This document shows positions 3,241-53,944 of a stretch of DNA of 64,000 nucleotides, one piece after another. Source of the stretch: Alphaproteobacteria bacterium. Lineage in GTDB: Bacteria > Pseudomonadota > Alphaproteobacteria > SP197. Position 1 is the first letter of the stretch. Each line of letters begins with the position of its first letter. The position numbers were made by a program, and so were the translations under genes. Below the pieces are notes generated by a model. That model was not told where the DNA came from. It searched no databases and was given only the letters and a program-made list of their open reading frames with translations. The stretch is from positions 448,001 to 512,000 of the forward strand of contig OZ245842.1 of the NCBI GenBank assembly GCA_965228895.1, read 5' to 3'.

Positions 3241-3356
3241 ATTCCCTGATACCATCCCGAAAATTCCCTCTTCCAGTCCGGGAGCAGGCCATATTTTCCC
3301 TGTTAACAGGGAAATCGCGGCGGAGACGGGTTCGCAGCAGACTGCCCGCACCACCA
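3241..3356 (+). repeat. Boundary element copy 1 (TTCCCTG palindromes + tRNA-tail-like 34-bp core)
   Basis: Perfect palindrome TTTCCCTGTTAACAGGGAAA at 3295-3314; core GAGACGGGTTCGCAGCAGACTGCCCGCACCACCA at 3323-3356 identical to 15503-15536. Confidence 0.85.
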
Positions 3357-3383
3357 TTTTCCATAATGCAGGTTATGGGGCTC
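3356..3383 (-). other. dif-like XerC/XerD site 1
   Basis: Minus strand GAGCCCCATAA-CCTGCA-TTATGGAAAAT; 11-6-11 layout with CATAA/TTATG inner dyad as in dif. Confidence 0.7.
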
Positions 3384-3442
3384 AAACCGAGCTTGGGTGG
3401 CACCGGGAGTTCTGCCCCTCGCCTTGCTGACCCTTGCGGAGG

Positions 3443-3640
3443 TTAGTGTTCCGGCGTTTGATGGTCTGAATGCCATGGGCGGCCGTCGATCTGGACGCCT
3501 ATGGCGCCATGCCTTTTCACCAAGACCTCAAGATGAATGAGTGCCTCGTGGAGGCATGCAAATGATGTCTCGGTTTCCAGGCTGACGGCATCCACGATAT
3601 CGACACCGCGCGCAGACGCTATGACTTGGTAGCCTTTCAT
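3443..3640 (-). CDS. Small hypothetical protein (65 aa)
   Basis: ATG at 3640 with GAGG upstream; no recognisable motif. Confidence 0.4.
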   Translation of the reverse strand: MKGYQVIASARGVDIVDAVSLETETSFACLHEALIHLEVLVKRHGAIGVQIDGRPWHSDHQTPEH

Positions 3641-3671
3641 GGGGACCTCTCGCAGGACCGGTGCAGCACAC

Positions 3672-3699
3672 TTGACCGTAGAGTTTAGTTTAGTAGAGT
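3672..3699 (+). promoter_or_regulatory. Putative dhaK promoter with AGTTTAGTTTAGT operator
   Basis: TTGACC at 3672, AGTTTAGTTTAGT at 3682-3694 (same 13-mer on minus strand at 13906-13918), TAGAGT at 3694. Confidence 0.6.
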
Positions 3700-3801
3700 T
3701 GAGTTTGTTGTGCAACGACACTAGAAAACCCAGTCCGGCTGGGGTTGATTGGCGTTGCCGACTGCTGATGTGGCGTTGCACGGGAGTATGCGGGGGCGGC
3801 C

Positions 3802-4794
3802 ATGAAGAAATTCTTGAATGATGTCGATGACCTGCTTCGTCAAAGCCTGGACGGTTTTGGCGCGGCCCACAGCGGCCTCGTCCAAATTCATCACGAGCCG
3901 ACCTACGTTGTCCGCGCAGGCGGGCCCGTCGCTGGTGAGGTCGCGCTGATTTCCGGCGGCGGTTCGGGGCACGAACCGCTGCACGCCGGTTTTGTCGGCG
4001 CCGGCATGTTGGCGGCGGCCTGTCCCGGCGAGGTCTTCACGTCGCCGACGCCCGACCAGATGCTTGCCGCCGCCGAGGCCGCCGACGGCGGCGCCGGCGT
4101 CCTGTTCATCGTCAAGAACTACTCAGGCGATGTCATGAACTTCGAGATGGCCGCCGAAATGTATGGCGGCGCGTCGGCGACGGTCTTGGTCAATGACGAC
4201 GTCGCGGTCGAAGACTCCTCGTTCACAACCGGCCGTCGCGGCGTGGCGGGCACGGTTGTGGTGGAGAAGATGGTTGGGGCCGCCGCCGCCGCAGGGGCAA
4301 CATTGGAAACGTGCATGATGCTTGGCGAGCGGGTCAACGCGGCGACACGCTCGATCGGTGTGGCACTCACCAGCTGCACTGTTCCAGCAGCAGGGACGCC
4401 GACTTTCGAACTTGGCGACGATGAAGCGGAGATGGGCGTCGGCATTCACGGCGAGCCCGGGCGGCGGCGCATCAAACTGGCGTCGGCGGCGGATCTCGCT
4501 GAAGAAATGATGTCGGCCATTCTTGCAGAGACTCCGGCAGAAAAGGGTGACCCGGTTCTGCTCCTGGCGAACGGCTTCGGCGGCACGCCGCTTATGGAGC
4601 TCTACCTGATGTATCAGGAGGCCCGCCTTCGTTTGGAGGATCGTGGCATTCAGGTCGCGCGCAGCCACGTCGGCAACGTCACGACATCGCTCGAAATGCA
4701 CGGTTGTTCGTTCACGGTAACGGCGCTTGACGACGAGATGACAACTCTTTGGAATGCGCCTGTGCAGACTGCAGCGCTACGCTGGGGCTGTTAG
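3802..4794 (+). CDS. dhaK: Dihydroxyacetone kinase subunit DhaK
   Basis: SGGGSGHEP, FTSPTPDQ, VKNYSGD, GRRGVAG, GIHGEPG, TSLEM. Confidence 0.95.
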   Translation: MKKFLNDVDDLLRQSLDGFGAAHSGLVQIHHEPTYVVRAGGPVAGEVALISGGGSGHEPLHAGFVGAGMLAAACPGEVFTSPTPDQMLAAAEAADGGAGVLFIVKNYSGDVMNFEMAAEMYGGASATVLVNDDVAVEDSSFTTGRRGVAGTVVVEKMVGAAAAAGATLETCMMLGERVNAATRSIGVALTSCTVPAAGTPTFELGDDEAEMGVGIHGEPGRRRIKLASAADLAEEMMSAILAETPAEKGDPVLLLANGFGGTPLMELYLMYQEARLRLEDRGIQVARSHVGNVTTSLEMHGCSFTVTALDDEMTTLWNAPVQTAALRWGC

Positions 4795-4818
4795 GCCCGC
4801 AGACGCCAGGTTGCGGGC

Positions 4819-5274
4819 TTACTCTTTTTCTATCCGCCGCCTGGCAAGGCCGATCATGCGTTTGGCCGTCTGGCGTATGGAATCTTCGAGTTGCTGCTCG
4901 AGTTCCGGGTCACCCAAGTTGGGCAACATAATCGACATTTGACGGCCGTTGTCGCTGACGCTCCTCTTTGAAGCCGCGCTACCGCTTGCGCCCGCTTTGC
5001 GGTTGGGATGCGCTGCCTGATAGGCAGACAGAAATCGCTGTTTCTCGCTCGGCGACAGATGGCAGACCTTGGCGATAACCGAGACGTCGCCTGCCGGGAT
5101 CGGCACCGGATAGGTCGGGTTGGTGATTTGCGAGACAAAGCTCTTATGTTTGCCGAGCGCCTCGGCGATTTTCTGGCGTGTACCGGACGGTCGCAGGTCG
5201 ACGAGTTCGCGGAGCACGGTCTTGTACTCCCTGACCAGGTCTTCGCGGGACCGCACGTCAGATGTCGAGTTCAT
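4819..5274 (-). CDS. Putative HTH (XRE-like) regulator, last gene of the dha/PTS operon
   Basis: RQKIAEALGKHKSFVSQIT resembles an HTH; start overlaps the EI stop. Confidence 0.65.
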   Translation of the reverse strand: MNSTSDVRSREDLVREYKTVLRELVDLRPSGTRQKIAEALGKHKSFVSQITNPTYPVPIPAGDVSVIAKVCHLSPSEKQRFLSAYQAAHPNRKAGASGSAASKRSVSDNGRQMSIMLPNLGDPELEQQLEDSIRQTAKRMIGLARRRIEKE

Positions 5275-6874
5275 GGATAGCGGCCTTGATCGTTCCAAGC
5301 GCGGCCGGTGCGATCGAGAGCGATCGCAGCCCAAGCCCAACGAGATCTGCCAGGCATCTCGGATCCGATCCCATGTCGCCGCACAGACTTACCCCCTTGC
5401 CGTCACGGCGACCATGCTCGACGACCCGGGCGATTAACTCAAGCACGGCGGGATTGCGCGGGTCCTGAAGTGAGCTGAGGCTGGCCTCGTCGCGGCTGGC
5501 TGCCGTCGTGTACTGGATGAGGTCATTGGATCCGATCGAATAGAAATCGGCGTCAAACTCCGCGATGCGCAGGGCGGCTGCGGGCACCTCGACCATGATC
5601 CCGATCGGCGGCAGTCGGTCGGACCGTTCGCCTGACGCCATGGCGGCATGGGTCTCGGTTATCAAACGGCGTGCCTCTTCAAACTCTTCTGGCGCCGTCA
5701 CCATGGGCAGCATGATCCGCATGTCGCCATCAGCTGCGGCACGCAGCATGGCGCGGATTTGGGTTTGAAAGGTCTCGGGACGCTCCAGCGACAAGCGCAA
5801 GCCCCGCACGCCCAGAAACGGGTTCATCTCGCCACTATGGGTCAGACCGGGGATCGGTTTGTCGCCGCCGGCATCCAGTGTACGGAAGATGATCGGTTTG
5901 CCGCGCGACCATGCCATCACCCGATGATACGTGGCGGTCTGCGTGGCCTCATCTGGCAAGGTGCCGCCGTCGTCCAGCTGAAGTTCGGTTCTGACAAGGC
6001 CGCTGCCGTCGCAATGATCGATGTCAATGGCGGGCAGAAGGGCGGGGTCGTCGATGTTGACCAGAACGGCGACCGACGTGCCGCGCCGTGTCGTGGCGGG
6101 CAGCGGCAGGAGCCGGGCCTGCTCGCGCCGGCTCTTGGCCAGGCGGGTAAGACGCTGGTCAAAGTCGCGCTTTGCTTCCGCAGTGGGATCGATCACCAGA
6201 ACGCCCTGTTCGGCATCGACCAAGGCGCATCCGGCGTCTGCGATGGCGGCCTCGGCGGCATCACCAAGGCCGACCAGCATGGGCAGACCGCGCGCGCGCG
6301 CCAGGATGGCGACATGGCTGGTCGCGCTTCCGGCCCGCAAGACAAGGGCCGCCATGCCGTGGGACGCCAGGGCAAGGAAACGCGACGGTGGCATGTCGCT
6401 GGCGATGACAACGTGGCCGGAAACCTTGTCATCGATCGCCGCCGCATGGCCTTGCAAGTGGTCGAGAACACGGTCGCGAAGATCCGCAAGGTCAGCCGCG
6501 CGGGCCCGGAAGTACGCGCTGTCACCGTCTTGATAGATGGCTATCTGGCTACCGAGGGCGTTTGTCCACGCGGTGTCGGCGGCGGTGCCATCGGCGATCT
6601 CCGGATAGGCGGCGGCGGTCAGCTCGTCATCCTCAAGCATGGCGATCTGGAATTCGAGGATTTCCGATGCCAGGTCATCGGCATGCTGTCGAAGGAAATC
6701 CAAGTCACGGACGGCCGCGCCGACGGCGTCTCGCAAGGCGTCCGCCTCGGCGCCGGGCGCCAGGGCTTGCCGGGCTTGACCCTTGCCCCTGGCATCGAGC
6801 CATAGCGGGCCTTTGGCCAGGCCCGGTGAGGCGGCTTGTCCGCTCAGCACGTTAGCCGTCGACCCGCGTTTCAT
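5258..6874 (-). CDS. ptsI: PTS enzyme I (PEP-protein phosphotransferase)
   Basis: Phospho-His motif TSHVAILAR, GLVRTE, RTLDAGGDK, NPFLGVRG, MVEVP, SIGSNDL, CG. Confidence 0.93.
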   Translation of the reverse strand: MKRGSTANVLSGQAASPGLAKGPLWLDARGKGQARQALAPGAEADALRDAVGAAVRDLDFLRQHADDLASEILEFQIAMLEDDELTAAAYPEIADGTAADTAWTNALGSQIAIYQDGDSAYFRARAADLADLRDRVLDHLQGHAAAIDDKVSGHVVIASDMPPSRFLALASHGMAALVLRAGSATSHVAILARARGLPMLVGLGDAAEAAIADAGCALVDAEQGVLVIDPTAEAKRDFDQRLTRLAKSRREQARLLPLPATTRRGTSVAVLVNIDDPALLPAIDIDHCDGSGLVRTELQLDDGGTLPDEATQTATYHRVMAWSRGKPIIFRTLDAGGDKPIPGLTHSGEMNPFLGVRGLRLSLERPETFQTQIRAMLRAAADGDMRIMLPMVTAPEEFEEARRLITETHAAMASGERSDRLPPIGIMVEVPAAALRIAEFDADFYSIGSNDLIQYTTAASRDEASLSSLQDPRNPAVLELIARVVEHGRRDGKGVSLCGDMGSDPRCLADLVGLGLRSLSIAPAALGTIKAAIHELDI

Positions 6875-7151
6875 CGAAGTCTCTCAGGACGAGGCCGGTC
6901 AATGCCGCAATCGCATCGTCAGCGTCACACCCTTCCGCTCGAATGATCAGAGTTTCGCCGGCCGCGATCTTCAACGCCATGACCTTGACGATGCTCTTGG
7001 CGTCGATCCATCCGGTCTCGTCCGCCTCGGTACGCAGCCTGATGTCGGACTCGAACGTCTTGGCGAGCTTGGTCAGTTTCACCGACGGTCTGGCGTGCAG
7101 GCCGACATCGTGAGTCACACGGACGGATCCTTCGGCATGGCTCGGCGTCAC
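6852..7151 (-). CDS. ptsH: HPr phosphocarrier
   Basis: GLHARP and DAKSI motifs. Confidence 0.93.
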   Translation of the reverse strand: MTPSHAEGSVRVTHDVGLHARPSVKLTKLAKTFESDIRLRTEADETGWIDAKSIVKVMALKIAAGETLIIRAEGCDADDAIAALTGLVLRDFDETRVDG

Positions 7152-7537
7152 GGTGACAGTTCCTCCGCCGTTGCCTTGACATCCTCAAGCGTGGCGTTAC
7201 CCCAGGCTTCGGTTGCCGCCATGACAGCGCCTTCAACGATCGGTGCGTTGCAGATGACGACGCGCTCACGCCATGGTTCCGGCAACATCTCGATGGCCAT
7301 TTCCGAGTTCGTCTCGGCGCCGCCGAGGTCGACCAGAATGGCGACGCCGGCGTCGGAATAGACCGTCTCGATCGCCTGCTTGATCGCGGCGACATCCGTA
7401 CCCAGGCCGCCGTCCGAGTTACCGCCGCACCACGCGACCGGGACTTCGTCGCCGACCATCTGATGCACCATGTCGTGGGCACCGCTGGCGACGCCAGGCG
7501 AATGCGAAACAATAACGATGCCAACTCTGTTACTCAC
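7148..7537 (-). CDS. dhaM: DhaM (EIIA-Man-like phosphotransferase subunit)
   Basis: GTG start at 7537; VGIVIVSHS, GGLGT, DLGGA, APIVEGA. Confidence 0.92.
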   Translation of the reverse strand: MSNRVGIVIVSHSPGVASGAHDMVHQMVGDEVPVAWCGGNSDGGLGTDVAAIKQAIETVYSDAGVAILVDLGGAETNSEMAIEMLPEPWRERVVICNAPIVEGAVMAATEAWGNATLEDVKATAEELSP

Positions 7538-8150
7538 CAGTCTTCCCCTGCACTGCCTGACATACGGCGTGAACCAACAACTGACTTGATCGTGCGCCCG
7601 GATCGAGATGTCCAACCGAGCGCTCGGCCAGAAACGATGCTCGGCCCTTCGTCGCCTGCATGGCGCGAGTCGATTCCAAACCATCGTCGGCTGCCGTTAG
7701 CGCATGGGCCACGGCATCGGCTACGGTTTTCGACTGCTTCAGTGCATCCTCGACCGGACCAAGCACGTCCAGCATGGTTTTCTCGCCACGGTCGGACTTG
7801 CCGCGCGACTTCACGGCATCGACCCCGGCGGTAAAGGCTTGCGTGAACGCTTCGAGTGACAGGGACGAAGCGGGCATGGCCTTGCCCATGGCCATAAGAA
7901 AACTGCCGTAGAGCGGGCCGGATGCACCGCCGACCTTCATGACCAGGGTCATGCCGGCTTTCTGCAGCCCGGCGCTGGGATCCAGGTCGGCCAGGGCATC
8001 GCGTTCGGCGGCGATCGCCTCGAACCCACGCTTCATGTTGAGCCCGTGGTCGCCATCGCCGATCGCCTGGTCGAGCGCCGTCAACTCGTCCGTATGATCG
8101 AGGATGGTGGCGACGCATGCGTCAATCAGCGGTGCGGTAAGGTCAGCCAT
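7530..8150 (-). CDS. dhaL: Dihydroxyacetone kinase subunit DhaL
   Basis: LDQAIGDGDHG, GGASGPLYG, KTMLD, GRAS, DPGA. Confidence 0.95.
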   Translation of the reverse strand: MADLTAPLIDACVATILDHTDELTALDQAIGDGDHGLNMKRGFEAIAAERDALADLDPSAGLQKAGMTLVMKVGGASGPLYGSFLMAMGKAMPASSLSLEAFTQAFTAGVDAVKSRGKSDRGEKTMLDVLGPVEDALKQSKTVADAVAHALTAADDGLESTRAMQATKGRASFLAERSVGHLDPGARSSQLLVHAVCQAVQGKTGE

Positions 8151-9177
8151 GAGGGCCTCCCGCCGCCTGGCCCGCAAGCCGGGCTCCGTCCTTTGAGAAA
8201 AAGAGCGCCCCGCCCGGCCGAGCCCGCACTGTGACGGGCTGGCCCGGCCGGAACTGCCGGTCAGCCGGTGCCAGGGAGCTGATCGCCTGGTCGGCGAGAC
8301 TGAGCTGGATGACGGTTTCGGCGCCCAGATGCTCGACATGGGTCACGGTCGCCGTGTCGCCGCCGTCGTCGAGGACGACGTCTTCCGGCCGGACGCCCTG
8401 CGTCGCCGTTCCCGACGGCGCCGCGGCACCCAAGCAACCGGCCGGCAGCAGATTGATGCGGGGGGATCCCAGACGGCGCGCCACGTCGATGTTGTCGGGC
8501 TTCTGATAGACCTCCGTCGGCGTTCCGATCTGCACGAGGCGACCTTCCGACAGGACGCCAATCCGATCCGCCAAGGTCATGGCTTCCACCTGATCGTGGG
8601 TGACGTAAAGGATGGTCGCGCCAAGCGAGAGCTGAATACGTTTCAGTTCGATCCTGAGATCGTGGCGCAGCTTCGCGTCGAGCGAGGACAACGGCTCGTC
8701 CATCAGAAATATCGCGGGTTCGCGGACCAGGGCACGGCCGATGGCGACCCGTTGCATCTCACCGCCCGACAGTTTGGTTGCCTTGTTCTCCAGCTTGTTC
8801 TCGATGCGCAGCAGTCCTGCGATCTCGCGAACGCGTCGGTCGATCTCCTTATCGCCCAGACGGCGCAGGGGCGATTTGAGCGGAAACGCCATGTTCTGGT
8901 AGGCGGTGTAGTGGGGGTAGAGCGAATACTGCTGGAACACCATCGCGACGTCGCGCGCGGCGGGATCCGTCGTCGTGATGTCAACGCCTTGGATGGCAAC
9001 GCGGCCACAGTCCGGGCGTTCCAGGCCTGCGACCAAGCGCAAGGTCGTTGTCTTGCCGGCCCCTGTCGGGCCGAGCAGGACGACACATTCGCCGTCCGCA
9101 ATGGTCATCGACATGTCTGCGATGGCGACAGTTTCGTCAAACGTCTTGGTGATTTGGGAGAGCGCTACGTCAGCCAT
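8143..9177 (-). CDS. Carbohydrate ABC transporter ATP-binding protein
   Basis: Walker A GPTGAGKT, LSGGE, LMDEP, VTHDQ; MalK-type tail. Confidence 0.93.
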   Translation of the reverse strand: MADVALSQITKTFDETVAIADMSMTIADGECVVLLGPTGAGKTTTLRLVAGLERPDCGRVAIQGVDITTTDPAARDVAMVFQQYSLYPHYTAYQNMAFPLKSPLRRLGDKEIDRRVREIAGLLRIENKLENKATKLSGGEMQRVAIGRALVREPAIFLMDEPLSSLDAKLRHDLRIELKRIQLSLGATILYVTHDQVEAMTLADRIGVLSEGRLVQIGTPTEVYQKPDNIDVARRLGSPRINLLPAGCLGAAAPSGTATQGVRPEDVVLDDGGDTATVTHVEHLGAETVIQLSLADQAISSLAPADRQFRPGQPVTVRARPGGALFFSKDGARLAGQAAGGPHG

Positions 9178-10264
9178 GGCGCCCTCCCGTGTTGGTCAAG
9201 GCCAGGGCTGCTTGCGACTTGGCGTCGAACAACGAGAGCCTTGACGTCAGGAAGTCGAGACCCACGGTGTCGCCAATCCGGGCATCGACCGTGTTGGAGG
9301 CGCGTACGCGCACCCGACCAACATCGGTGTCGACGGCGACGATCTTGCGCGCGCCCGTGTACTCGACGCCGAACACCCGTCCGCGCAGCGCTGCCGAATC
9401 GCTGAGTACGATGTGTTCGGGGCGGGCGCCCAGAATGCCGCTGTCGTGATCCAGGCCGTGTTCAAGGACCGGAACGCTGACATCGGCGCCGGCGACCGAC
9501 ACCTTGTCGCTACCGGGCGCGACGGGTCCGCCAAAGGGCAGCATGTTCATCGGCGGATTGCCGATAAAGTCCGCGACGAAGACGGACGACGGCCGGTCAT
9601 AGACGTCGTTCGGTGTGCCGACCTGCAGGATCTCACCGCCGTTCATGACCGCGACATAGTCACCCATCGACATCGCCTCGACCTGGTCGTGGGTGACATA
9701 AACGGTGGTTGCGCCGATGCGGTCATGAAGCTGCCGCAGCTCCTGACACATGAGATCACGGAACTCGGTATCCAGCGTGCCCAGTGGCTCATCCATCAAA
9801 AATGCCTTGGGCCGGCGGACGATCGCGCGGCCGAGCGCGACCCGTTGACGGTCGCCGCCGGCCAGCTGGCTGGGGCGTGCCTTCAAGAGGTCTTCGATAC
9901 GCAGCAACCGCGCGACTTCCTTGATGCGCTCGGCAATCTCCCGGCGGCTGACGCCCTGCGACTTCAGCGGATAGGCAAGGTTGTTATAGACGTTGAGATG
10001 CGGATAGAGCGCAAAGAGCTGAAAGACAAACGCGATATCGCGCTGTGCGGCACGACGGAACGTTACGTCTTCATCACCCAGGACGATGCGCCCGGACGTC
10101 GGTATCTCAAGTCCGGCGATCATGCGCAGCGTTGTTGTCTTGCCGCAGCCGGACGGCCCGAGCAGCACAAAAAAGCTGCCGTCGGGAATCGTCATGGTCG
10201 AATCCTTGACCGCAACGAACGCGTCGAAGCGTTTGTGCAGGTTCTCGATGCGGATCTGGGCCAT
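9170..10264 (-). CDS. Carbohydrate ABC transporter ATP-binding protein
   Basis: Start MAQIRIE; GPSGCGKT, LAGGD, LMDEP, VTHDQ. Confidence 0.93.
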   Translation of the reverse strand: MAQIRIENLHKRFDAFVAVKDSTMTIPDGSFFVLLGPSGCGKTTTLRMIAGLEIPTSGRIVLGDEDVTFRRAAQRDIAFVFQLFALYPHLNVYNNLAYPLKSQGVSRREIAERIKEVARLLRIEDLLKARPSQLAGGDRQRVALGRAIVRRPKAFLMDEPLGTLDTEFRDLMCQELRQLHDRIGATTVYVTHDQVEAMSMGDYVAVMNGGEILQVGTPNDVYDRPSSVFVADFIGNPPMNMLPFGGPVAPGSDKVSVAGADVSVPVLEHGLDHDSGILGARPEHIVLSDSAALRGRVFGVEYTGARKIVAVDTDVGRVRVRASNTVDARIGDTVGLDFLTSRLSLFDAKSQAALALTNTGGRHG

Positions 10265-10266
10265 CG

Positions 10267-10467
10267 TCAATCCTTGAAGTGGCTGACGATGACGAAACCC
10301 AGCGTGCCGGTGAGGATGACACCGAAGGAATAGCTGTAGGCCCACATTGAGAACGGTTGCATCAGCATGATGACGCCGGCGGCGATCAATGTCGTTGCCG
10401 CGGCTTCCCATGGTCCGCGTCGGAACAGGCGCCGCGGCCGCGTCTTGTTGGCGTCGCGCCCGCTCAT
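10267..10467 (-). CDS. Small two-helix membrane protein within the ABC operon (66 aa)
   Basis: ATG overlaps permease stop; stop 2 bp before ATPase start; two hydrophobic segments. Confidence 0.75.
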   Translation of the reverse strand: MSGRDANKTRPRRLFRRGPWEAAATTLIAAGVIMLMQPFSMWAYSYSFGVILTGTLGFVIVSHFKD

Positions 10468-11420
10468 TTGCGCACCGCGCCAAAGGTAATGCCGCGCAGC
10501 AGGTGCCGGCGCATGAGGACGGTGAAGAAGACGATCGGCAGCAGGAAGAGCGTCGTGCCCGCGCCGACGGCGGGCCAATCAAGGCCGCCCTCGCCAATGA
10601 TCGTGGGAATGAAGGGCGGCGCCGTTTGCGCCTCGCCGCTGGTCAGCAGCAGCGCAAATGCATACTCGTTCCAGGCGAAGATAAGACAGAAGATCGCCGT
10701 CGCCGCGATGCCCGTCGTCGCCTGGGGCAGAACGATCTTGATAAAGGCCTGGAATCGGCTGTAGCCGTCGATCATGGCGGCTTCCTCGTATTCGGGCGGG
10801 ATCTCGTCAATGAAGCCTTTCAGGAGCCAGACCGCGAGGCTGACGTTGACGGCCGTATAGAGCAAGATCATGCCGAGATGAGTGTCGTTCAGGCCAAGCT
10901 CTCGGTACATCAAGAAGATCGGCACGGCGACGGCAATCGGCGGCATCATGCGTGTCGACAGGATGAAGAACATCAGGTCGTCCTTTAGCGGCACCCGAAA
11001 GCGCGAGAAGCCATAAGCCGCGAGCGTGCCGAGGAAGACGGCAAGGAAAGTCGAGCCAAAGCCGATGATGACGGAGTTGGTGTAACGCTCGGCGAAACGC
11101 GACGGCCCGGTGATCACCATGTTGCGGCTGCGCACCAGTTCCTCATACCAGCTCGACGGCGGCGGCAGGCTTTCCATGTACTCCGGCGTTTGGCGCGACC
11201 GTGTCGTGAAGAGGTTTACGTAGCCTTCCAGCGACGGGTTGAACGTTACTTCCGGCGGGTAGGCGATGGCGTCGGGCGGCGTCTTGAACCCCGTCATCAA
11301 GATCCAGACGAGCGGCACCAAGGCGATAAGGGCATAGGCCGCGACCAAGACACCTGCAACGGTGCGCGACAGGGGGCTGGGTTCGACGACCGAATGTGAC
11401 GTCGAGGCAAAGCGGCTCAT
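10464..11420 (-). CDS. Carbohydrate ABC permease (MalG-like)
   Basis: EEAAMIDG and FAWNEY motifs. Confidence 0.93.
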   Translation of the reverse strand: MSRFASTSHSVVEPSPLSRTVAGVLVAAYALIALVPLVWILMTGFKTPPDAIAYPPEVTFNPSLEGYVNLFTTRSRQTPEYMESLPPPSSWYEELVRSRNMVITGPSRFAERYTNSVIIGFGSTFLAVFLGTLAAYGFSRFRVPLKDDLMFFILSTRMMPPIAVAVPIFLMYRELGLNDTHLGMILLYTAVNVSLAVWLLKGFIDEIPPEYEEAAMIDGYSRFQAFIKIVLPQATTGIAATAIFCLIFAWNEYAFALLLTSGEAQTAPPFIPTIIGEGGLDWPAVGAGTTLFLLPIVFFTVLMRRHLLRGITFGAVRK

Positions 11421-12373: not shown

Positions 12374-12399
12374 CTGCTGGCTTGGATACTAAAGGGATC

Positions 12400-12443: not shown

Positions 12444-12466
12444 AGGTTGGTTGCGACGGCGGGAGA

Positions 12467-13792: not shown

Positions 13793-13887
13793 TGCTTCAC
13801 CTCCCAAATTCTGAGTTCGCGTTGCGTCGATGTTGGTGCCGACCGACAGCCGGTCGGATAAGACCACCCCACGTATTCTTGCTCTTG

Positions 13888-45326: not shown

Positions 45327-45533
45327 CGTGAACCTCGCGGATCTGTGAATCCCCAGGCAATTCATCCCATGCAACATAGGACATATGGACTAGGTTGACC
45401 AGAATTCTGACAAGTTTCTGCTGTCGTCCATCTCCCCTGCAGCTAAGGGTTTCCGTGGGATACTACTCTTGTCGTGTGGTCACTTGGTCATTGGACCGTA
45501 AGTCACTCCGATCGGCTGCTAACTGATGATTCG

Positions 45534-46892: not shown

Positions 46893-46923
46893 TGTCGCTG
46901 CTGGCGCTTTCTGTCGTGCTTCT

Positions 46924-47139
46924 TTACGAGCCTCTCGCGGCTGCCGATCTCGCCACCTGGATAGGTGGACAGGGCACGGTACCGTACGAGCAGAAGACGC
47001 AGCAATCGCCCTTTTTGGGTCTCAGGAGTTCGCCGCAGCCCCTGCAGTCATAGAAGAATTGGCAAGCGTCGATGGGCATCGTCTCGCGCGCGCGGTGACC
47101 GCAATGCGGACACGTGATCGTCGACTGTCGGTCGGTCAT
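46924..47139 (-). CDS. GDCCVxC-domain small Cys-rich protein
   Basis: CPHC, CRGC, GDCCVFCSYG, CPP. Confidence 0.88.
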   Translation of the reverse strand: MTDRQSTITCPHCGHRARETMPIDACQFFYDCRGCGELLRPKKGDCCVFCSYGTVPCPPIQVARSAAARGS

Positions 47140-47339
47140 GCCAGTCGTCTTCTCCAGAAAGCGTAGATCGTGATGCCGATGAACAGCGCAAGCGCGGGGA
47201 AGAGGATGTAGTCGAGCCAGCCGACGATGGCTGAAAGGCCGACAGCAGTGACCAAAACGACAAGGATCGGCGTAATGCAGCAGATGGCAACAATGATGCT
47301 TCCGACGACACCGGTCCGAAGCAGGGTTTCGTTCTTCAC
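47136..47339 (-). CDS. merF: Mercury transport protein MerF
   Basis: AICCITP, GWLDYILFPAL; GTG start; ends RRRLA without C-terminal CC. Confidence 0.85.
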   Translation of the reverse strand: MKNETLLRTGVVGSIIVAICCITPILVVLVTAVGLSAIVGWLDYILFPALALFIGITIYAFWRRRLA

Positions 47340-47605
47340 GTCAACGGCTGTCCCAGGCCGGCAGCCATCAAGACCTCCAGGTCAGGGCCGCGTTGCGCGC
47401 AGCAATCTGCGATCTTGCCGTCGATTACGACCGCCGGAACCGAATGAACACCGAGCTCCTTTGCTCGCTTCGCGACGCGTGGATCGGCCATGTCGAGGAT
47501 CTCGACATCACACGATGCGCAGGCCTTTTCTTTGATCTGGTAAATCGCATCGGCACAGACCGGACACCCGGCACTGAAAATCTCGATCTTTCTCGTCTTT
47601 GCCAT
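47336..47605 (-). CDS. Thioredoxin/glutaredoxin-like protein
   Basis: AGCPVC, CASC, SVPAVVIDG, DCC; AAGGAG RBS. Confidence 0.85.
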   Translation of the reverse strand: MAKTRKIEIFSAGCPVCADAIYQIKEKACASCDVEILDMADPRVAKRAKELGVHSVPAVVIDGKIADCCAQRGPDLEVLMAAGLGQPLT

Positions 47606-47648
47606 GACAACGACTCCTTCGGTCTTGCGTTTCTAAGGTCGTGGTCAC

Positions 47649-47679
47649 AAGCTAGTTCCTGTAGTAGCTACAGGTTCAA
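47649..47679 (-). promoter_or_regulatory. MerR-type promoter for trx-merF-GDCCVxC operon
   Basis: TTGAAC-19 bp-TAGCTT containing dyad CCTGTAG-N3-CTACAGG. Confidence 0.82.
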
Positions 47680-47689
47680 GAGGAATCTC

Positions 47690-48106
47690 ATGAGCCAAGA
47701 AAATCCTTCGTTTTCCATCGGAGAACTCGCAAAACACACAGGCTGCAAGGTCGAAACAATACGATACTACGAGAAGATTGCGCTGCTACCTCCGCCACCT
47801 CGGACGGGCGGCGGCCACCGCCTCTATTCCGAGAACCACGCTAGGCGTCTCGGTTTCATACGCCGGGGCCGTGAACTCGGTTTCAAGCTGGACGAGATCC
47901 GCCTGTTGCTTCGGTTGGCCGACGGTGACGAATACAACTGTGACATGGTCAAGGAGATCACGCTCCATCACCTGCAGAACGTGAAAGAGAAGATCAGAGA
48001 CCTCAAGAAGCTCGAACGAACGCTGACAACGGTGTCGAGCGCTTGTCAGGGCGGCATCGCACCCGACTGCCCTATCATCGAGACTCTGTTCAGCATGAAC
48101 AGATAG
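47690..48106 (+). CDS. MerR family regulator (three-Cys Hg/Cd type)
   Basis: SIGELA, VETIRYYE, YNC, ACQGGIAPDCPII. Confidence 0.9.
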   Translation: MSQENPSFSIGELAKHTGCKVETIRYYEKIALLPPPPRTGGGHRLYSENHARRLGFIRRGRELGFKLDEIRLLLRLADGDEYNCDMVKEITLHHLQNVKEKIRDLKKLERTLTTVSSACQGGIAPDCPIIETLFSMNR

Positions 48107-48202
48107 GTGGTTTCTTAGATGGTGGTGATCGAACTTACTGGTATTCTAGGAATTGAGCCGTAGGCGGGATAGACCCGCCCACGGTTATCGTTGACTTAGC
48201 CT

Positions 48203-48751
48203 TCACATGCCGCCGCAGCCCATGCCGATGAGCTGATTGGCTCGCTGTTTCTGTTCGTCGGTCAATGCCGCATAGAGTTGTTCCGTCGCTGGACGTATGG
48301 CCTTCATCGAATCAACCATTGCCTCCATGCCGCTGATCCGTGCATCCATCCTGGCGATAACGTCGCCTGACTGCATGGCCTTCATCATGTCCTGGCGCAT
48401 GCCTTGCATGGTCGCGACGCGATCCTCGACGGCTGTCGCATAACTGTCCCATGCACCCATCTGGGCATCGGTGATGCTCAATTCAGTCTTGAGAAAGGCC
48501 AAGCGACCAGCAGCAACGGCATCCATGTGCACATGATCGTTCATCATGCCTTGGCCACCCATGCCCTGGTCCTGACCCATCATTCCCTTGTTCATCATTC
48601 CCTGACCGCCCATCATGCCCATCATCGGACAGTTGCCACCCATCATTCCCATGGTGCTTGGGACATCGCCCGACATGTGGGCGAGAGAAGGTGAAGGTGC
48701 GGCCATCCAGACGACCAACACCGCTGTTGCCGAGATCAATAATTTCTTCAT
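48203..48751 (-). CDS. Spy/CpxP (LTxxQ) periplasmic protein with Met/Gly-rich N-terminus
   Basis: Signal peptide, GMMG repeats, LSITDAQ, LTDEQ, C-terminal MGCGGM. Confidence 0.82.
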   Translation of the reverse strand: MKKLLISATAVLVVWMAAPSPSLAHMSGDVPSTMGMMGGNCPMMGMMGGQGMMNKGMMGQDQGMGGQGMMNDHVHMDAVAAGRLAFLKTELSITDAQMGAWDSYATAVEDRVATMQGMRQDMMKAMQSGDVIARMDARISGMEAMVDSMKAIRPATEQLYAALTDEQKQRANQLIGMGCGGM

Positions 48752-49017
48752 GACGCGTTCCATTCTCCAAAGGACTTCTGACAACTCGGATGGATAAACC
48801 CAAGCCGTCGTGAACGTCTTGATCTGCGTCAAAAAGCCGCACCGCTGCGCACAATTTCACGTGATCAGAACCGCGCAGCTGGCCCATGTCCCAAGATCCG
48901 AATGCGCTGTGCCGGCGTTACGCCATGGTCATGTGAAGGACGACAGTAGAGCTTAACCTTCCGGGAACTGGAACCGTATTGCCGAGCGGCGTCAGCACAA
49001 AAAGCGCACGTTGATGA

Positions 49018-50388
49018 TTATGGTCGGCGCGCGCTCTTTGAACTCTCGGACTTGACCTGCAAGAACAGCCTTTCGCCAAGAAACACCAGCACGAGCCCCA
49101 CCACCGATGCGTAGATTACGGTCATGTCCGTCGAGGCCTTGATGGCCAGGAGGGCCCCAAGCACGACGACGTCGAGGACAATTGCGACAATCAGGATGAA
49201 TGCGGATGCGTTGATTTCTTTTCTGAGATGACGCAGGACGCCCCATTGAACAACGATGTCCATGACGATGTAGAATATGGCGCCCAGCGACGCGATCCGG
49301 CCGAGGTCGAAGAAGACGGTGAGAATCATCGCTGCGATAACAGTATAGACGAGCGTGTGTCTCTGGATGCTGCCCGGCATGCCAAAATGGCTGTGCGGGG
49401 CGAGCCCCATTTCAGTGATCATAGCCAGCATACGTGAGACAGCGAAGACACTGGCAATTACACCAGACGTCGTTGCAATTATCGCGAACAGCACGGTGAA
49501 CCACAGGCCATAATCGCCAAACGCCGGTCGGGCAGCCTCTGCAAGCGCGTAGTCCTTCGCACTGACTATCTGGCCAAGCGTAAGATTGCTTCCGACGGCA
49601 AAGGCGACAAGCACGTAGACAACGACGCAGATCGCGATCGCGATGATGATGGCGCGACCGACATTCTTATGAGGCTGAACAATCTCACCGCCACTGTTTG
49701 TGATGGTCGTGAAACCCTTATAGGCGAGAATGGCGAGGGCTATGGCGCCGACAAAGCCCCACGGAGATGTTTCCGTCGGACCAGCCGAGACGCTGTCAAA
49801 ACTCAACCCCGTTACCCAAAGTCCGGCGATGGCGAACAATGCAATCCCGCCGATTTTGATGAAGGCCATAAAGAACGACAACGTCTGGATGAAACGATTG
49901 CTAAGGATGTTCACGAGGAAGGCGAATGAAAGAAGTCCGACACCCAGCGCCGGGACAAGCCACGTGTCCTTGCCGACGTCAAACAGCTGTAAGGTGTAGG
50001 TGCCGAACGTCCGAGCAACAAGGCTCTCGTTGATAACCATGGAAAAGTACATGAGTAGTGCGCAAGCGCCGGTCATCATGGACTTGCCGTATGCCTTCTC
50101 CAGGAACATCGCAATTCCGCCGGCGGACGGGAACGCATTCGACATTTTCACATAGGCATAGGCGCTGAACGCCGTCACCACCGCCGCTGCAAGAAAGGCA
50201 AGCGGGAAGAGTTCGCCGGCAAGCTCCGCGACCTGGCCCGTTAATGCAAAGATTCCAGCGCCGATCATGACGCCGGTCCCCATGGATATGGCACCGATCA
50301 GGGTGAGGCTATTGGCCGCATAGTGCGCGGACCGACCATGCTTTGAATGATTTGCAGTGTCGTGCTTATCGCCCACATCGAATCTCAA
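49018..50388 (-). CDS. APC family permease
   Basis: GVMIGAGIF, PSAGG, AYKGF; about 12 TM. Confidence 0.88.
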   Translation of the reverse strand: MRFDVGDKHDTANHSKHGRSAHYAANSLTLIGAISMGTGVMIGAGIFALTGQVAELAGELFPLAFLAAAVVTAFSAYAYVKMSNAFPSAGGIAMFLEKAYGKSMMTGACALLMYFSMVINESLVARTFGTYTLQLFDVGKDTWLVPALGVGLLSFAFLVNILSNRFIQTLSFFMAFIKIGGIALFAIAGLWVTGLSFDSVSAGPTETSPWGFVGAIALAILAYKGFTTITNSGGEIVQPHKNVGRAIIIAIAICVVVYVLVAFAVGSNLTLGQIVSAKDYALAEAARPAFGDYGLWFTVLFAIIATTSGVIASVFAVSRMLAMITEMGLAPHSHFGMPGSIQRHTLVYTVIAAMILTVFFDLGRIASLGAIFYIVMDIVVQWGVLRHLRKEINASAFILIVAIVLDVVVLGALLAIKASTDMTVIYASVVGLVLVFLGERLFLQVKSESSKSARRP

Positions 50389-50464
50389 TTGGCGTGTCGC
50401 ACAAAACTACACCTCACATCATTGACCGCCAATCAAAGGATAGCCGTCGGGCGAAAAGAAAAAC

Positions 50465-50492
50465 TGTAACGATCGGAGGCCTGACACGTCTT
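50465..50492 (+). promoter_or_regulatory. Putative ECF promoter (GNAT operon)
   Basis: TGTAAC-N16-CGTCTT; flanks AAACTGTAACG...CGTCTTA shared with 35842 site. Confidence 0.7.
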
Positions 50493-50522
50493 ACTCGGCA
50501 CTAGTGGAGTAGAGAGGTCACG

Positions 50523-51170
50523 GTGCTTGTCAAGACGAGACGTGCGACCGAAGACGATCTATCGTTCATCGGGTGGGCGATGTACGCGGCAGCACGCTCG
50601 CAACTCCATGAGTGTCCTTGGAACACGATCCTCGGAGAACGAAAAACGCAAACCCGGCGTTTCCTCGAGTACGTTTCGCAGTCGCGCGCCGTACACTGGT
50701 GCCACGTTTCCACGTTCTGGATCGCGGAAGTGGACGGAAAACCCGCTGCGGCGATGAGCAGCTATGCACCTGCAACAGAGGGTGCTGAAGCTCTCGCTCA
50801 GTCGATACTCGATGTCGCTGAGTCGGAGTTCGACTTTCCGAGGTCGCGGCTTCGCCAGGTGAGCGAACGTCTCCAGACCGCAACATTGGGGCTTCCCAAT
50901 GATCTACCGGAAGTTTGGGGAGTCGAAAATGTCGCAGTTGTTCCTGCGCATCGTGGCAAGGGCCTGGTCGAACGACTGTTTGACAGGGTGTTCGAGGAGG
51001 GCCGTGAGAAGGGTTTCGACCGCGCACAGATCTTGTGCCTCATTGGCAATCTGCGCGCTCAGCGAGCCTGGGAACGTAACGGCTTTGAGGTGTTCTTGCA
51101 GCAGACAAGTCCGGCGTTTGACAGGTTGTTTGGAACACCGGGCGCCAAGCTTCTTGCCAGGGATCTGTGA
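50523..51170 (+). CDS. GNAT acetyltransferase
   Basis: VAVVPAHRGKG, GNLRA..WERNGF. Confidence 0.85.
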   Translation: MLVKTRRATEDDLSFIGWAMYAAARSQLHECPWNTILGERKTQTRRFLEYVSQSRAVHWCHVSTFWIAEVDGKPAAAMSSYAPATEGAEALAQSILDVAESEFDFPRSRLRQVSERLQTATLGLPNDLPEVWGVENVAVVPAHRGKGLVERLFDRVFEEGREKGFDRAQILCLIGNLRAQRAWERNGFEVFLQQTSPAFDRLFGTPGAKLLARDL

Positions 51171-52330
51171 CGTTGTCGGTTCTCACTCTCTTTGATCAGA
51201 ACATGAGCGTTCGACGGGGATCGCAATCGTTGAGAACAACGGCAGCTGAATGCGCAAGTCGAGACGACAAGATCTTGATCATAGGCGGGTATGGCAAGGT
51301 GGGACGCCTCATCGCCGATCGACTGGCACCAGGATTTCCCGGCCGGGTTGTCCTTGCCGGACGAAACCGAGCCAAGGCTCAATCGGCCGCAGCGGCGATT
51401 GGACATGGCGTCGAAGGGCGTCACATTGACGTCCTAGACACGAAAGGCAACCACGCACTTGACGAAGTCCGTCTGGTGTTGTCCTGTCTGGATCAGGCCG
51501 ACACGAAACTCGTCGAGCAGTGCCTCGCTCGAGGCATCGACTATGTGGACATCAGCGCTAACTACGAATTTCTTTTGAATGTCGCCAAGTTTGACAGCTT
51601 GGCGAAGCAAGAGAACGCCCGTGTTCTGCTGAGTGTTGGTGTTGCGCCCGGGCTGACCAACATGTTGGCAGCGCGTCTCCGGTCGCGAATGGAGAGCGTC
51701 GACCGTATCGACATTCTGCTCGAAATCGGACTGGGTGACGACCATGGCAAGGCTGCAGTCGAGTGGATGTTCGACAGTTTCGATTCTGAGTTTCAAGTAC
51801 TGGAGGCCGGTCAGCTAAGGTCTGTTCGAAGTTTTGACGAAAGCATGTCGATTCGCCTGCCGGGACAAGCCGCGAAACGCAGCGCATATCGCTTTGGTTT
51901 TCCAGATCAGCTTGTGATTGCGCGGTCACTGGATGTGCCCACAGTCTCAACGTGGGTCCGCTTTGACAACCGCATGGTGACATGGCTGTTTGCGAAGGCC
52001 TCTCGGGCCGGTCTCGGTTGTCTGCTTCGACTTGGGCTGTTGCGAAAGCTGGCCGTTTGGCTGTTCATGAAGATCCATTGGGGTTCAGACATCTGTGGCA
52101 TTGGTGTCCGGGCGATGGGTCGGTCGAGCGGCGGTTCGCAAACTCTGATCCTCGGCGTTATCGGTCGAAGAGAGGCCGTCATGACAGCAATTGTCGCGGC
52201 CGAGTCCGTCCGACAGCTCTTGTCGGGGAGACTGGAGCCCGGCGTCTATCACAGCGACCAGGCGATAGCCCTCAATCCGGTTGTTTCGGCACTTAAGAAC
52301 GAGATCCCGGACCTCGTCGTAGTCTTGTAA
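51167..52330 (+). CDS. Saccharopine dehydrogenase-like NAD(P)-dependent oxidoreductase
   Basis: IIGGYGKVG, AGRN, YVDIS, GVAPGLTN; start uncertain. Confidence 0.82.
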   Translation: MTLSVLTLFDQNMSVRRGSQSLRTTAAECASRDDKILIIGGYGKVGRLIADRLAPGFPGRVVLAGRNRAKAQSAAAAIGHGVEGRHIDVLDTKGNHALDEVRLVLSCLDQADTKLVEQCLARGIDYVDISANYEFLLNVAKFDSLAKQENARVLLSVGVAPGLTNMLAARLRSRMESVDRIDILLEIGLGDDHGKAAVEWMFDSFDSEFQVLEAGQLRSVRSFDESMSIRLPGQAAKRSAYRFGFPDQLVIARSLDVPTVSTWVRFDNRMVTWLFAKASRAGLGCLLRLGLLRKLAVWLFMKIHWGSDICGIGVRAMGRSSGGSQTLILGVIGRREAVMTAIVAAESVRQLLSGRLEPGVYHSDQAIALNPVVSALKNEIPDLVVVL

Positions 52331-52383
52331 TGCCTCACATCGGATCGGCGAGGTCGGCGGCATGGTGAGGAGAACGATTGCTT

Positions 52384-52944
52384 ATGTCCTATACCGCTCA
52401 TAGCGCATCGCATGCTTTCAAAACTCAGGGCGTGAAGCGCCGAGATTTTCTATTTTTAGCAAGTGGCGCTGTTTTTGTGACGGGTGCTGCGGTCGCCATG
52501 TGGCCCGTAATTGACAGCATGAATCCGTCCGAGGATGTTCTTGCCCTGTCCTCGACCGAGCTTGACCTAACCTCCATCCAGCTGGGTCAGCGCGTCACCG
52601 TGAAATGGCGGGGGAGTCCGGTCTTCATCGTCCGGCGCACAACCGAGGAGATCACGCGCGCCAGGGCGGATGACGACGATCCCGATCTCATTGACCCGTC
52701 AACCGACGCCGAGCGTGTTCAGCGGCCCGAGTGGTTGGTTGTCATCGGTATCTGCACGCATCTAGGCTGCATACCGCTCGGCCAAAAAAACGGAGATCCT
52801 CTCGGTCGGTATGGAGGATGGTTCTGCCCCTGCCACGGCTCGGTCTACGACTTGTCAGGACGGGTACGGCGCGGCCCGGCGCCGCGCAATCTCGATCTTC
52901 CGCCATACATCTTCCTCGACGACATGCGTCTTCGGATCGGATAA
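52384..52944 (+). CDS. petA: Ubiquinol-cytochrome c reductase Rieske subunit (orphan)
   Basis: Tat RRDFL, SMNPS, KWRG, CTHLGC, CPCHGS, GPAPRNL. Confidence 0.92.
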
Positions 52945-52959
52945 CCAGCGGCGGCGATC

Positions 52960-53592
52960 ACCAAGTTGATCCGTTGCGAGCCGGCGTCAGGCCTGCTGAT
53001 GATCGCGGCCATCCTGCTTGCGTTGGCCGCCGCCACCTCTGCTTTTGCGCCAATCTAAGCGGCCGTCCACCACCTACCGGTTCATGTTCGTTCTGGGCCC
53101 CGGGTCATCGACGAACCACTCGTGCAATGGATCAATGAAGGGCTGATGGCGGTCTTTGTCCTGCTTGCCAGTTTCGATGACATGGGCGCTGTCGCCATTA
53201 TCGGCCTGTTCTACGGCGAAGCCCTCGCTCCTACGCCACTCCTGCTTGTCGGCCTTGCCCTTTTGAACCGGTTCGGCATCGTCCGGCCGACAGCCTATGT
53301 GACCGTTGATCTGGTACCGTGGGTCGCGATGCTGAAGTCCGGGCTTGAGGCCGCGCTCGCGGGATTCATCGTGGCGCTGGCGGAGCCTCTGCACATGTCA
53401 GGCAGACCCTGTTCATCATCGCTGCGTAAGGTGGAAAGTCGACCTCATCCCTGGTGTGCGCTCTTCATCATCCCGCTATTCGCCTTCTGTGGTTCCGGCG
53501 TCGTCATGGACGCGGCTGCGGTTGCCGGCGCACTTGTGATTCACCTGACAACGCGGCAATCTCGGTGTACAGCGAAGAGGCAGATCTCCTGA
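52960..53592 (+). pseudogene. nhaA: Na+/H+ antiporter NhaA remnant
   Basis: WINEGLMAVF, DDMGAVAIIGLFY, LKSG, HPW..IPLFAF..SGV; in-frame TAA at 53056, internal deletion, no C-terminus; start boundary approximate. Confidence 0.85.
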
Positions 53593-53710
53593 AGAGGTCT
53601 GTGTATATCGAGGTGGTTGTACCAGTCGCCAGCGGACGAATGTTACAGGCTTGGTTCAGGGCCCCTTTCGCAAGATAACCCGGAGCGGCGATTGCAGCCC
53701 GTTCGAGAAG

Positions 53711-53900
53711 TTTCCCTGATGTACGGACGGATCTCCCTGTTCCATTGCGTAGGGAACTTGCCTCTGGCTTGCTGATAAGGCTGCAAGAGATCGGCCGAAA
53801 AACTCAGAAACTGGCCAAAATCACAGATTTTCCCCGTATTCTCCCTGCTAACAGAGAAATCGCCACAGAGACGGTTCGCAGCGGGCTGCCCGCACCGCCA
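53711..53900 (+). repeat. Boundary element copy 3
   Basis: TTTCCCTGAT, TCCCTGTT...GCGTAGGGAA, TCCCTGCTAACAGAGAA; core 53868-53900 with three substitutions and one deletion vs copies 1 and 2. Confidence 0.85.
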
Positions 53901-53916
53901 GTCTCCTTGTCCGGCC

Positions 53917-53944
53917 ATTTACCATAAAGCAGATTGTGGCGCTG
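53917..53944 (-). other. dif-like site 4
   Basis: Minus strand CAGCGCCACAA-TCTGCT-TTATGGTAAAT; right arm 10/11 to E. coli XerD arm TTATGTTAAAT. Confidence 0.7.

Follow-up and report, generated by a model that had tools for sequence, protein, structure and literature searches.

Dif-like core sites bounding cargo modules in tRNA-anchored islands of an alphaproteobacterium: a candidate Xer-type recombination-site array

DNA modules bounded by Xer-type recombination sites have so far been documented mainly on Acinetobacter plasmids, and as phages and islands at the chromosomal dif site. In the plasmid systems (pdif, also called xrs), modules that encode no recombinase are bounded by 28-bp XerC/XerD-type sites; the XerC arms lie far from the consensus, and matching central regions are required, as set out in those parts of PMC11705084 on which we draw. 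How modules move in such systems is puzzling, given their inverted orientation and mismatched central regions. Integrative mobile elements exploiting Xer (IMEX), among them the CTX, VGJ and TLC phages and the gonococcal island, similarly consist of integrase-less DNA between direct dif-like sites, in the portions of that literature used here. IMEX sites pair one good arm with one poor arm, and tandem arrays are possible. Here we analyze a 64,000-nucleotide stretch of alphaproteobacterial chromosome (the window, G000:C1:448001-512000, from the organism's single-contig, 5.53-Mb genome, G000) that carries four dif-like sites. These would be members of a family of ~18 Xer-type recombination sites, and we propose that cargo modules of 1.2–52 kb are inserted and deleted by site-specific recombination, with the crossover in the core of the site. 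Positions in the window run from 1 to 64000; "genome" positions are coordinates of the G000 contig.

The four 28-mers quoted in the initial annotation are present on the + strand and, as it had claimed, all lie between long open reading frames (ORFs). Their arms are classified by the flanking repeats described below (P on the left, P′ on the right, x where an arm is absent):

3356..3383, + strand: site 1, ATTTTCCATAA-TGCAGG-TTATGGGGCTC, class P-core-x
15536..15563, + strand: site 2, ACTTGCTAGAA-TGCAGA-TTATGACGCCG, class P-core-x
18540..18567, + strand: site 3, GTTTCCCATAA-TGCAGA-TCACGCGACCA, class x-core-x, a core-only copy
53917..53944, + strand: site 4, ATTTACCATAA-AGCAGA-TTGTGGCGCTG, class P-core-x

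When the window was searched with CCATAATGCAGATTATG at up to 2 mismatches, there were 4 matches, all on the + strand, against 0.00 expected from 100 dinucleotide-preserving shuffles. The direct orientation and shared (T/A)GCAG(A/G) spacer reported earlier hold, with one central region common to the sites, and the Pfam content of the three blocks between them agrees with the claim that the sites part coherent functional modules.

In the whole genome, the 17-mer core had 6, 13 and 18 matches at 0, 1 and 2 mismatches, respectively. Seventeen of the 18 lie at either 345–562 kb (all +) or 4224–4252 kb (all −), and only one falls elsewhere, at 2.60 Mb, where it forms a full dif-like site. Equally good matches are therefore rare and, save for this one, confined to two islands. 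Adding one weaker copy to the 17 gave an alignment of 18 array sites: 14 in island A, a roughly 240-kb region downstream of tRNA-Met (genome 322–562 kb), all on the + strand, and 4 in island C, ~90 kb at tRNA-Ser(GGA), all on the − strand. One strand per island, on a chromosome, differs from the alternating plasmid layout of pdif modules, a distinction already drawn in the initial annotation. The conserved unit is 22 nt long, ATTTTCCATAA-TGCAGA-TTATG; conservation sets in at the 11-nt arm even beside unrelated upstream DNA, and it ends past TTATG. Each of the eight positions of the ATAA-6-TTAT motif is retained in 15–17 of the 18 sites. The spacer, which is non-palindromic, is TGCAGA in 15 of 18, and such constancy is expected if recombining partners need a matching central region (PMC11705084, the same parts). 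In G000, exact matches to CATAA-N6-TTATG are limited to 11 places, of which 8 are array sites and one is the candidate host dif described below.

The family is similarly restricted outside this genome. Among 400 other genomes from across the class, 15 had exactly one match to the core pattern and none had more (a reversed-pattern control gave 0); within the order, multiple copies were found only in G000 (14 matches) and its congener G002 (6). The exact 18-mer was present in 35 stretches among 185,579 species genomes, mostly as single matches in unrelated taxa, with several copies in a Hyphomicrobiales metagenome-assembled genome (MAG). The TGCAGA spacer is joined to a dif-type TTATGCGA arm at single sites found in Chelativorans and in one MAG each of Aquamicrobium and Hyphomicrobiaceae. 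A blastn search of 72,556 PLSDB records found no plasmid match to the composite site, and viral contigs gave only a single AT-rich chance match.

In G000, cumulative GC skew is lowest near 5.05 Mb and peaks broadly at 2.31–2.40 Mb. A candidate host dif, AAGTCGCATAA-TATATA-TTATGGAAAAT, is found at genome 2268582, some 40–130 kb from this skew plateau. G002 and G003 each have a single exact copy of it, G005 and G038 have it with one or two changes, and the Rhizobiales dif sequences tabulated by Carnoy and Roten match it (PMC2731167, as far as its tabulated entries were used). We take this site as the chromosomal dif. The window, at 0.45–0.51 Mb, lies ~0.93 Mb from the origin (the skew minimum), and both dif, at 2.27 Mb, and the terminus are distant from it. 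The consensus left arm of the array sites, ATTTTCCATAA, is the exact reverse complement of the XerD-side arm of dif, TTATGGAAAAT, at 11 of 11 positions. Scoring against the host dif, a check suggested for the initial annotation, thus supports the likeness in the left arm and in the retained ATAA-6-TTAT motif; the array central region, TGCAGA, differs from the TATATA of dif.

A second full dif-like site was seen at genome 2598520–2598547 (AAGTCGCATAA-GCTACA-TTATGGAAAAT), with both arms identical to dif and another spacer. It lies 330 kb from dif in the same orientation, without a local skew extremum, and may be what is left of an integrated replicon, or else a junction of the IMEX type. The two arrays themselves, at 345–562 kb (+) and 4224–4311 kb (−), are in mirror orientation on either side of the skew minimum, at distances of ~0.82–1.04 Mb and ~0.74–0.83 Mb; an inversion symmetric about the origin would account for this, as would independent islands on the two replichores.

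The inventory of recombinases points to the host. G000 has 4 matches to PF00589, none of them in the arrays: one XerC-like and one XerD-like protein, and two others at genome 1234540 and 5258486. The best family for the XerC-like protein (296 aa) is TIGR02224 XerC, with 318 bits (cut-off 335); the XerD-like protein (301 aa) scores 324 bits with TIGR02225 XerD (cut-off 330) and 366 bits with PRK00283 (cut-off 279). No integron integrase IntI is indicated, there being no PF00589 match within or beside the arrays, and no DUF3653 domain, as in an XafT-like activator, is present. The earlier statement that 64 kb contain no recombinase gene is right for the window, where profile searches found no tyrosine or serine recombinase domain and the 50 ORFs scanned gave no match to a transposase or recombinase family. 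It does not carry over to the island, at whose edge a large serine recombinase (LSR) gene is located (genome 322271–324094). In two other genomes with sites, too, the tyrosine recombinases lie away from the arrays: the 3 found in G002, which lacks a serine recombinase altogether, are all on contigs other than that of the array, and all 8 tyrosine recombinase matches of the Hyphomicrobiales MAG are on contigs other than the site-bearing ones. Because the arrays encode no tyrosine recombinase, host XerC/XerD would be the most parsimonious catalyst.

Each of sites 1, 2 and 4 forms the 3′ end of a conserved repeat, ~110–200 nt long, which we call the P arm. It contains several TTCCCTG motifs, a palindrome, CCCTGTTAACAGGG, and a partial-tRNA-like stretch (...GGGTTCGCAGCAGACTGCCCGCACC(A/G)CCA) that resembles the 3′ half of a tRNA. 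The three copies in the window are:

3240..3355, + strand: P arm of site 1, with TTCCCTG repeats, CCCTGTTAACAGGG and the partial-tRNA-like end ...GCACCACCA; 0 errors to both P-arm probes
15380..15535, + strand: P arm of site 2, 90% identical to that of site 1 over 60 nt
53730..53916, + strand: P arm of site 4, with the Ser-type end ...GCACCGCCA, then GTCTCC...

The TTCCCTG cluster of site 1 lies at genome 451242–451307, and further P arms are found at genome 381.6k, 399.6k, 526.8k, 4237.6k and 4251.7k. Every P arm, including those in G038, has TTCCCTG direct repeats and one perfect 18-bp palindrome, TTCCCTGTTAACAGGGAA, which together look like a protein-binding array. In LSR elements, a gene for a ParB-domain methyltransferase was seen within a few kb of the P-arm repeats. 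Over the whole family, the ~200-nt P arm is present at 10/18 sites and a ~55-nt P′ arm, on the right side, at 3/18, in the following combinations:

P-core-x: 9/18 sites, including window sites 1, 2 and 4
P-core-P′: 1/18 sites, at 4237.5k
x-core-P′: 2/18 sites, at 345.4k and 427.15k
x-core-x: 4/18 sites, including window site 3
weak or partial arms: 2/18 sites, at 366.7k and 4224.4k

The Hyphomicrobiales MAG has 2 P-core-x and 2 x-core-P′ sites, the arm classes of this MAG and of G002 being based on site flanks and not on the arm-probe scan. The constant core is accompanied by both arms, by one of them or by neither, which points to a crossover within the core; these combinations are the pattern that reciprocal exchange there produces.

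The P arm is, on this evidence, the right end of LSR islands. Three LSR genes, 48–50% identical to one another, stand beside tRNA-Met, tRNA-Ser(CGA) and tRNA-Ser(GGA), one per island at the tRNA end, and one unrelated LSR gene lies at 4292693. The island at tRNA-Ser(CGA), island B, terminates 59 kb from it in a P arm that has no core. At site 4 the end of the P arm looks like an unrecombined serine-recombinase attP junction; the left junction of tRNA-Ser(GGA), for comparison, reads ...CCGCCA|GTCTCC. Since most sites are composites with an LSR-type P arm, a second recombination system evidently helped to build the array. LSR integration does not explain by itself the cores without P arms, and LSR fragments are absent from the modules. 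Nor does it account for the distance from the LSR-type junction (..CCA) to the core, which varies from 0 to 17 nt, or for the Ser-type copies: at site 4, 4251k and 527k, an apparently intact LSR P-O-P′ junction (...CCGCCA|GTCTCC or TTCTCC) is located beside the core, which suggests that integration took place through the core and not the LSR site. We therefore picture a hybrid platform, in which phage-like LSR elements would dock at the tRNA 3′ end; the P arm, as the conserved right end of such elements, borders the core on its left at 10/18 sites.

The phage-like islands with related LSRs extend over genome 321892–345000 (tRNA-Met), 875546–934800 (tRNA-Ser(CGA)) and 4292000–4310838 (tRNA-Ser(GGA)). 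In islands A and C the LSR gene is adjoined by genes for a terminase large subunit and a ParB-methylase. Two apparent defence genes in island A encode a PtuA-like ATPase and a UvrD-like helicase.

Several other identities for the sites and their arms were considered. A promoter or regulatory site was rejected, as long flanking ORFs converge on sites 1, 2 and 4. An RNA family was rejected because Rfam gave nothing at gathering scores; its sole match by E-value was Hairpin-ribozyme (E = 0.1) in a 601-nt stretch at window 15100–15700, and ARAGORN found no tRNA in the window. All 7 TTCCCTG clusters (with at least 3 motifs) lie at one-sided arms and have no inverted partner ends, which excluded a two-ended transposon. 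A gene starting in P′ was likewise rejected, there being no conserved long ORF there and no common gene downstream of P′.

Our comparisons covered the congener and sister species G002, the genomes G001, G003 and G005, G038 from another family, and the Hyphomicrobiales MAG. In G002 the left chromosomal flank and tRNA-Met are conserved, and the real tRNA is directly followed by a core; in other genera no core follows tRNA-Met. Beyond this point the modules of G002 are arranged as follows:

M_a, first module of G002: corresponds to G000 383.5–399.8 kb
M_b, after M_a: corresponds to G000 451.3–463.3 kb (the sugar/dihydroxyacetone module)
four G002-only modules, between M_b and M_c
M_c, after the G002-only modules: corresponds to G000 510.1–526.8 kb

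Module 1 of the window (between sites 1 and 2) is 84% identical as a whole to G002:C4:110393-122385, and there, too, sites of this kind bound it. The M_a/M_b junction of G002 consists of the left flank of the G000 399.8k site and the right flank of site 1, and the three-way alignment changes partner at the core of this junction; where G002 joins M_a to M_b, G000 has 52 kb that include two further sites. Site 2 is orthologous to the G002 site at C4:110077, and the genomes diverge beyond it. The prediction that breakpoints of module gain and loss fall at the sites was thus borne out for sites 1 and 2. Sites 3 and 4 have no such comparative support: in the sister genomes, modules 2 and 3 gave a partial 71% match to module 2 in G001 and scattered paralog matches for window 44–64 kb, and these sparse matches therefore afford no breakpoint test.

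On balance, we think it somewhat probable that the cores are, or were, Xer-type recombination sites that mediate the gain and loss of modules; both the role of Xer as the enzyme and any present-day activity of the sites are inferred. Addition or excision of modules through XerCD, as the initial annotation proposed, accords with sites that are dif-like, rare and directly repeated and with the breakpoints at sites 1 and 2, but an LSR system is involved as well and the XerC arm is degenerate.

A number of observations weigh against this reading, beginning with the window sites themselves, all four of which deviate in the spacer or in the ATAA/TTAT motif. Site 1 has a single mismatch to the 22-nt family consensus, at the final spacer base (TGCAGG). 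The left arm of site 2 has 4 changes, among them ATAA to AGAA; site 3, which has neither a P nor a P′ arm, has TCAC in place of TTAT; and site 4 has 3 changes, with the spacer AGCAGA and TTGT for TTAT. Sites 2, 3 and 4 each break one half of the ATAA/TTAT motif, and the window sites rank among the more degenerate members of the family. In A. baumannii, XerCD recognised a site divergent in this motif only poorly, and that site failed to recombine (PMC11705084, as excerpted above). The four window copies, changed at critical positions, may be relics or fossils. More generally, the XerC-side arm is degenerate beyond TTATG in the whole family, its outer 6 nt carrying 0.2–0.6 bits and showing only a weak R-S-R-Y-Y where dif has CGACTT; degenerate XerC arms are usual in pdif sites (PMC11705084). 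The junctions are not uniformly at cores either: the G000/G002 breakpoint near window 61.9k (the left end of M_c, with homology to G002:C4 from about window 61940 onward) has no site in G000 and a degenerate one in G002, and at the left junction of M_a homology begins only 165–460 nt past the cores. A second copy of module 2 elsewhere in the genome has no flanking dif-like cores, and repeats of ~90 nt at 80–90% identity could also support homologous recombination. The LSR elements pose further difficulties, since P arms in G038 adjoin LSR genes with no dif-like core after them, G000 equals G002 plus about 60 kb placed exactly between the CCA of tRNA-Met and the core, and at least the 381.8k P-core junction is explained simply, as it would need only LSR insertion between tRNA-Met and a core already in place. 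Logan contigs from four public runs break at the repeats and contain no informative joints, and so give evidence neither way.

The points on LSR elements feed an alternative in which the arrays grew by serine recombination only, in the manner of tycheposons or the staphylococcal cassette chromosome (SCC): phage-like or cargo elements would integrate successively at the tRNA 3′ end and push older ones inward. The core would then be the first 22 nt of the left end of an element, for instance a dimer-resolution site, with no role in module movement, and the integrase-less modules would be decayed elements or ones moved in trans. Three related LSR genes each beside a tRNA, a P arm with a partial tRNA at the far end of an island, the 60 kb gained exactly between tRNA-Met and core, and a P arm in G038 that converges on an LSR gene, much as at an attP or tandem junction, are all what it would lead one to see, and tycheposons do form tandem tRNA-anchored arrays with partial tRNAs (bioRxiv 10.1101/2020.12.28.424599, in the sections used here). 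However, it predicts P-core-(P′) at every internal junction, and the P arm is missing at 6/18 sites of G000 and 2/4 of the MAG. Nor does it sit well with the 0–17 nt variation in crossover-to-core distance, with left junctions of the three resident LSR elements that lack a core, with arrays free of LSR fragments, or with G002 and G001, which hold arrays yet have no serine recombinase gene; the 11/11 identity to the dif arm would have to be coincidence. We regard this alternative as unlikely.

Two further explanations seem to us less probable still. The cores could be relic repeats that undergo no site-specific reaction today, the modules being rearranged by RecA-dependent exchange between repeats of ~100 nt, by deletions and by activity of insertion sequences (IS). 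P arms with up to 28 identical bases in common, the degeneracy of the four window sites at critical positions, the second copy of module 2 next to an IS3-family element and without cores, and one breakpoint without a site all fit this idea. It is at odds with core-only sites that have just ~22 nt in common with their partners (for example, the tRNA-Met junction of G002 and G000 383040), with a spacer that most of the 18 aligned sites have in common and that is kept in three genomes, and with six copies that match the 17-mer core exactly. Conservation of the core amid unalignable intergenic DNA argues for selection on the site, and we consider relic repeats a decidedly improbable account. The reaction might instead be catalyzed in trans by another recombinase, either the tyrosine integrase at genome 1234540 or 5258486 or an unrecognised enzyme, with the TTCCCTG motifs and P′ serving as arm-type or accessory sites. 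Arms of ~200 nt and ~55 nt around a short core do resemble the attP of arm-binding tyrosine integrases, and the genome has two non-Xer tyrosine recombinases; but both are at least 0.7 Mb from the arrays, the one at 5258486 lies about 0.8 kb from tRNA-Thr (5259763) like an ordinary island integrase, the only extra one in G002 is on another contig, and the core matches dif, the known Xer substrate. Of such an enzyme we are very doubtful.

With Xer-type sites as the preferred reading, the array works most like the Acinetobacter modules and IMEX arrays, without the defining layout of either. It departs from the pdif modules in being chromosomal, tRNA-anchored and directly oriented with one shared central region, in having sites fused to partial-tRNA arms, in modules of up to 52 kb, and in the lack of a plasmid match. 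It departs from IMEX in that it lies ~1.8 Mb from dif, has a central region that is not that of dif, lacks a DUF3653/XafT-like gene, and carries metabolic and metal-resistance genes as cargo in place of phage genomes.

The tRNA-anchored side of the array recalls other systems. An LSR gene beside an intact tRNA and partial-tRNA-like P arms at boundaries are features of a tRNA-anchored array, for which gene-end-anchored tandem islands of the SCC type are an analogue. Tycheposons, in the sources drawn on in part, share the tRNA 3′ end as anchor, partial tRNAs that mark the boundaries of successive elements, packaging genes like those of phage-inducible chromosomal islands (here TerL) and, in some elements, LSRs. 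They were screened as integrase-carrying elements, with a tyrosine recombinase in 910/937 and an LSR in the rest (bioRxiv 10.1101/2020.12.28.424599, likewise in part). In contrast, the elements of our arrays do not each have an integrase of their own; a recombinase is present only in the tRNA-proximal element, and the strict repeat is a dif-like core downstream of the partial tRNA. As in integrons, there is a same-orientation array that grows from a fixed platform; its units carry promoter-independent cargo (pdxJ being the sole gene of one of them) and have a structured recombination site at their end. Unlike integrons, the arrays have no IntI, attI or attC, the units are mostly multi-gene with their own regulators, and the site is of the duplex Xer type and not a folded attC. 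The plasmid resolution sites cer and psi resemble the array sites in having an Xer core, a variable XerC arm and ~200 nt of conserved flank that could bind accessory proteins. In cer and psi the flank lies on the XerC side; here, the long arm is on the XerD side, and it comes with a partial tRNA and an LSR-type junction. We file the system as a variant of Xer-site-bounded modular islands, in hybrid with a serine-recombinase tRNA island. In the literature we found no such array described outside Acinetobacter and Vibrio, supplements and subscription journals lying beyond the scope of that search.

About 18 same-orientation sites with one central region, far from dif, present the geometry in which simple Xer excision and integration are expected, and would therefore be a clean natural system for testing the co-option of host dimer-resolution enzymes for gene capture. 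The locus also indicates how a 240-kb adaptive island can arise jointly from two recombination systems, one based on a serine recombinase at a tRNA and the other on a dif-like core; its cargo of copper and metal resistance and of sugar and other catabolic modules occurs in marine or soil Alphaproteobacteria. More speculatively, we entertain the possibility of an Xer-driven, integron-like gene-capture platform in Alphaproteobacteria, in which circular P-core-P′ modules would enter and leave a tRNA-anchored array. The private central region TGCAGA might insulate the array from the chromosomal dif; the flanking arms might recruit accessory proteins and so free the reaction from its terminus/FtsK context; and serine-recombinase satellites that dock on the platform could carry sets of modules between hosts. 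This fuller scheme is tentative and, as a whole, doubtful.

By Pfam content, the modules in the window, which have no strand assigned, are:

3384..15535: module 1, with Dak1, Dak2, a PTS enzyme-I-like protein, an ABC sugar transporter and an amidohydrolase
15564..18539: module 2, with LspA, cytochrome c, CDF efflux and MerR
18568..53916: module 3, a 35-kb copper/metal island with mixed cargo
53945..64000: start of the next module, which runs on to the site at genome 527050

The genes of module 3 include four MerR regulators, two CopA-type ATPases, CopB, a multicopper oxidase and a cupredoxin, along with ECF sigma factors, an adenylate cyclase and a permease. Those at 53945..64000 encode DJ-1/PfpI, an ABC transporter, a Rieske oxygenase plus a reductase, AsnC and a sulfatase. 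Module 2 recurs at genome 4267987–4270916 in a copy 95.5% identical to window 15570–18499; this copy adjoins an IS of the IS3 family at one end and has a ScsC/DsbA-like gene nearby. Contigs from public runs have ~2x depth over module 2, consistent with two genomic copies.

A truncated NhaA antiporter gene stops just ahead of the P arm of site 4; its 156-aa ORF (window 53122–53592) covers only positions 145–282 of the 374-position NhaA profile. A repeat present in three copies, CTTGACCTTCCC..GGAAGC, is found at window 19355–19382, 20470–20497 and 42395–42422, beside MerR-family genes and a CopA ATPase, and we presume that it may represent promoter-operator boxes of the MerR/CueR type. The smallest module, at genome 381803–383040, has 1.2 kb between two cores and one gene, pdxJ, and is a single-gene unit like an integron cassette.

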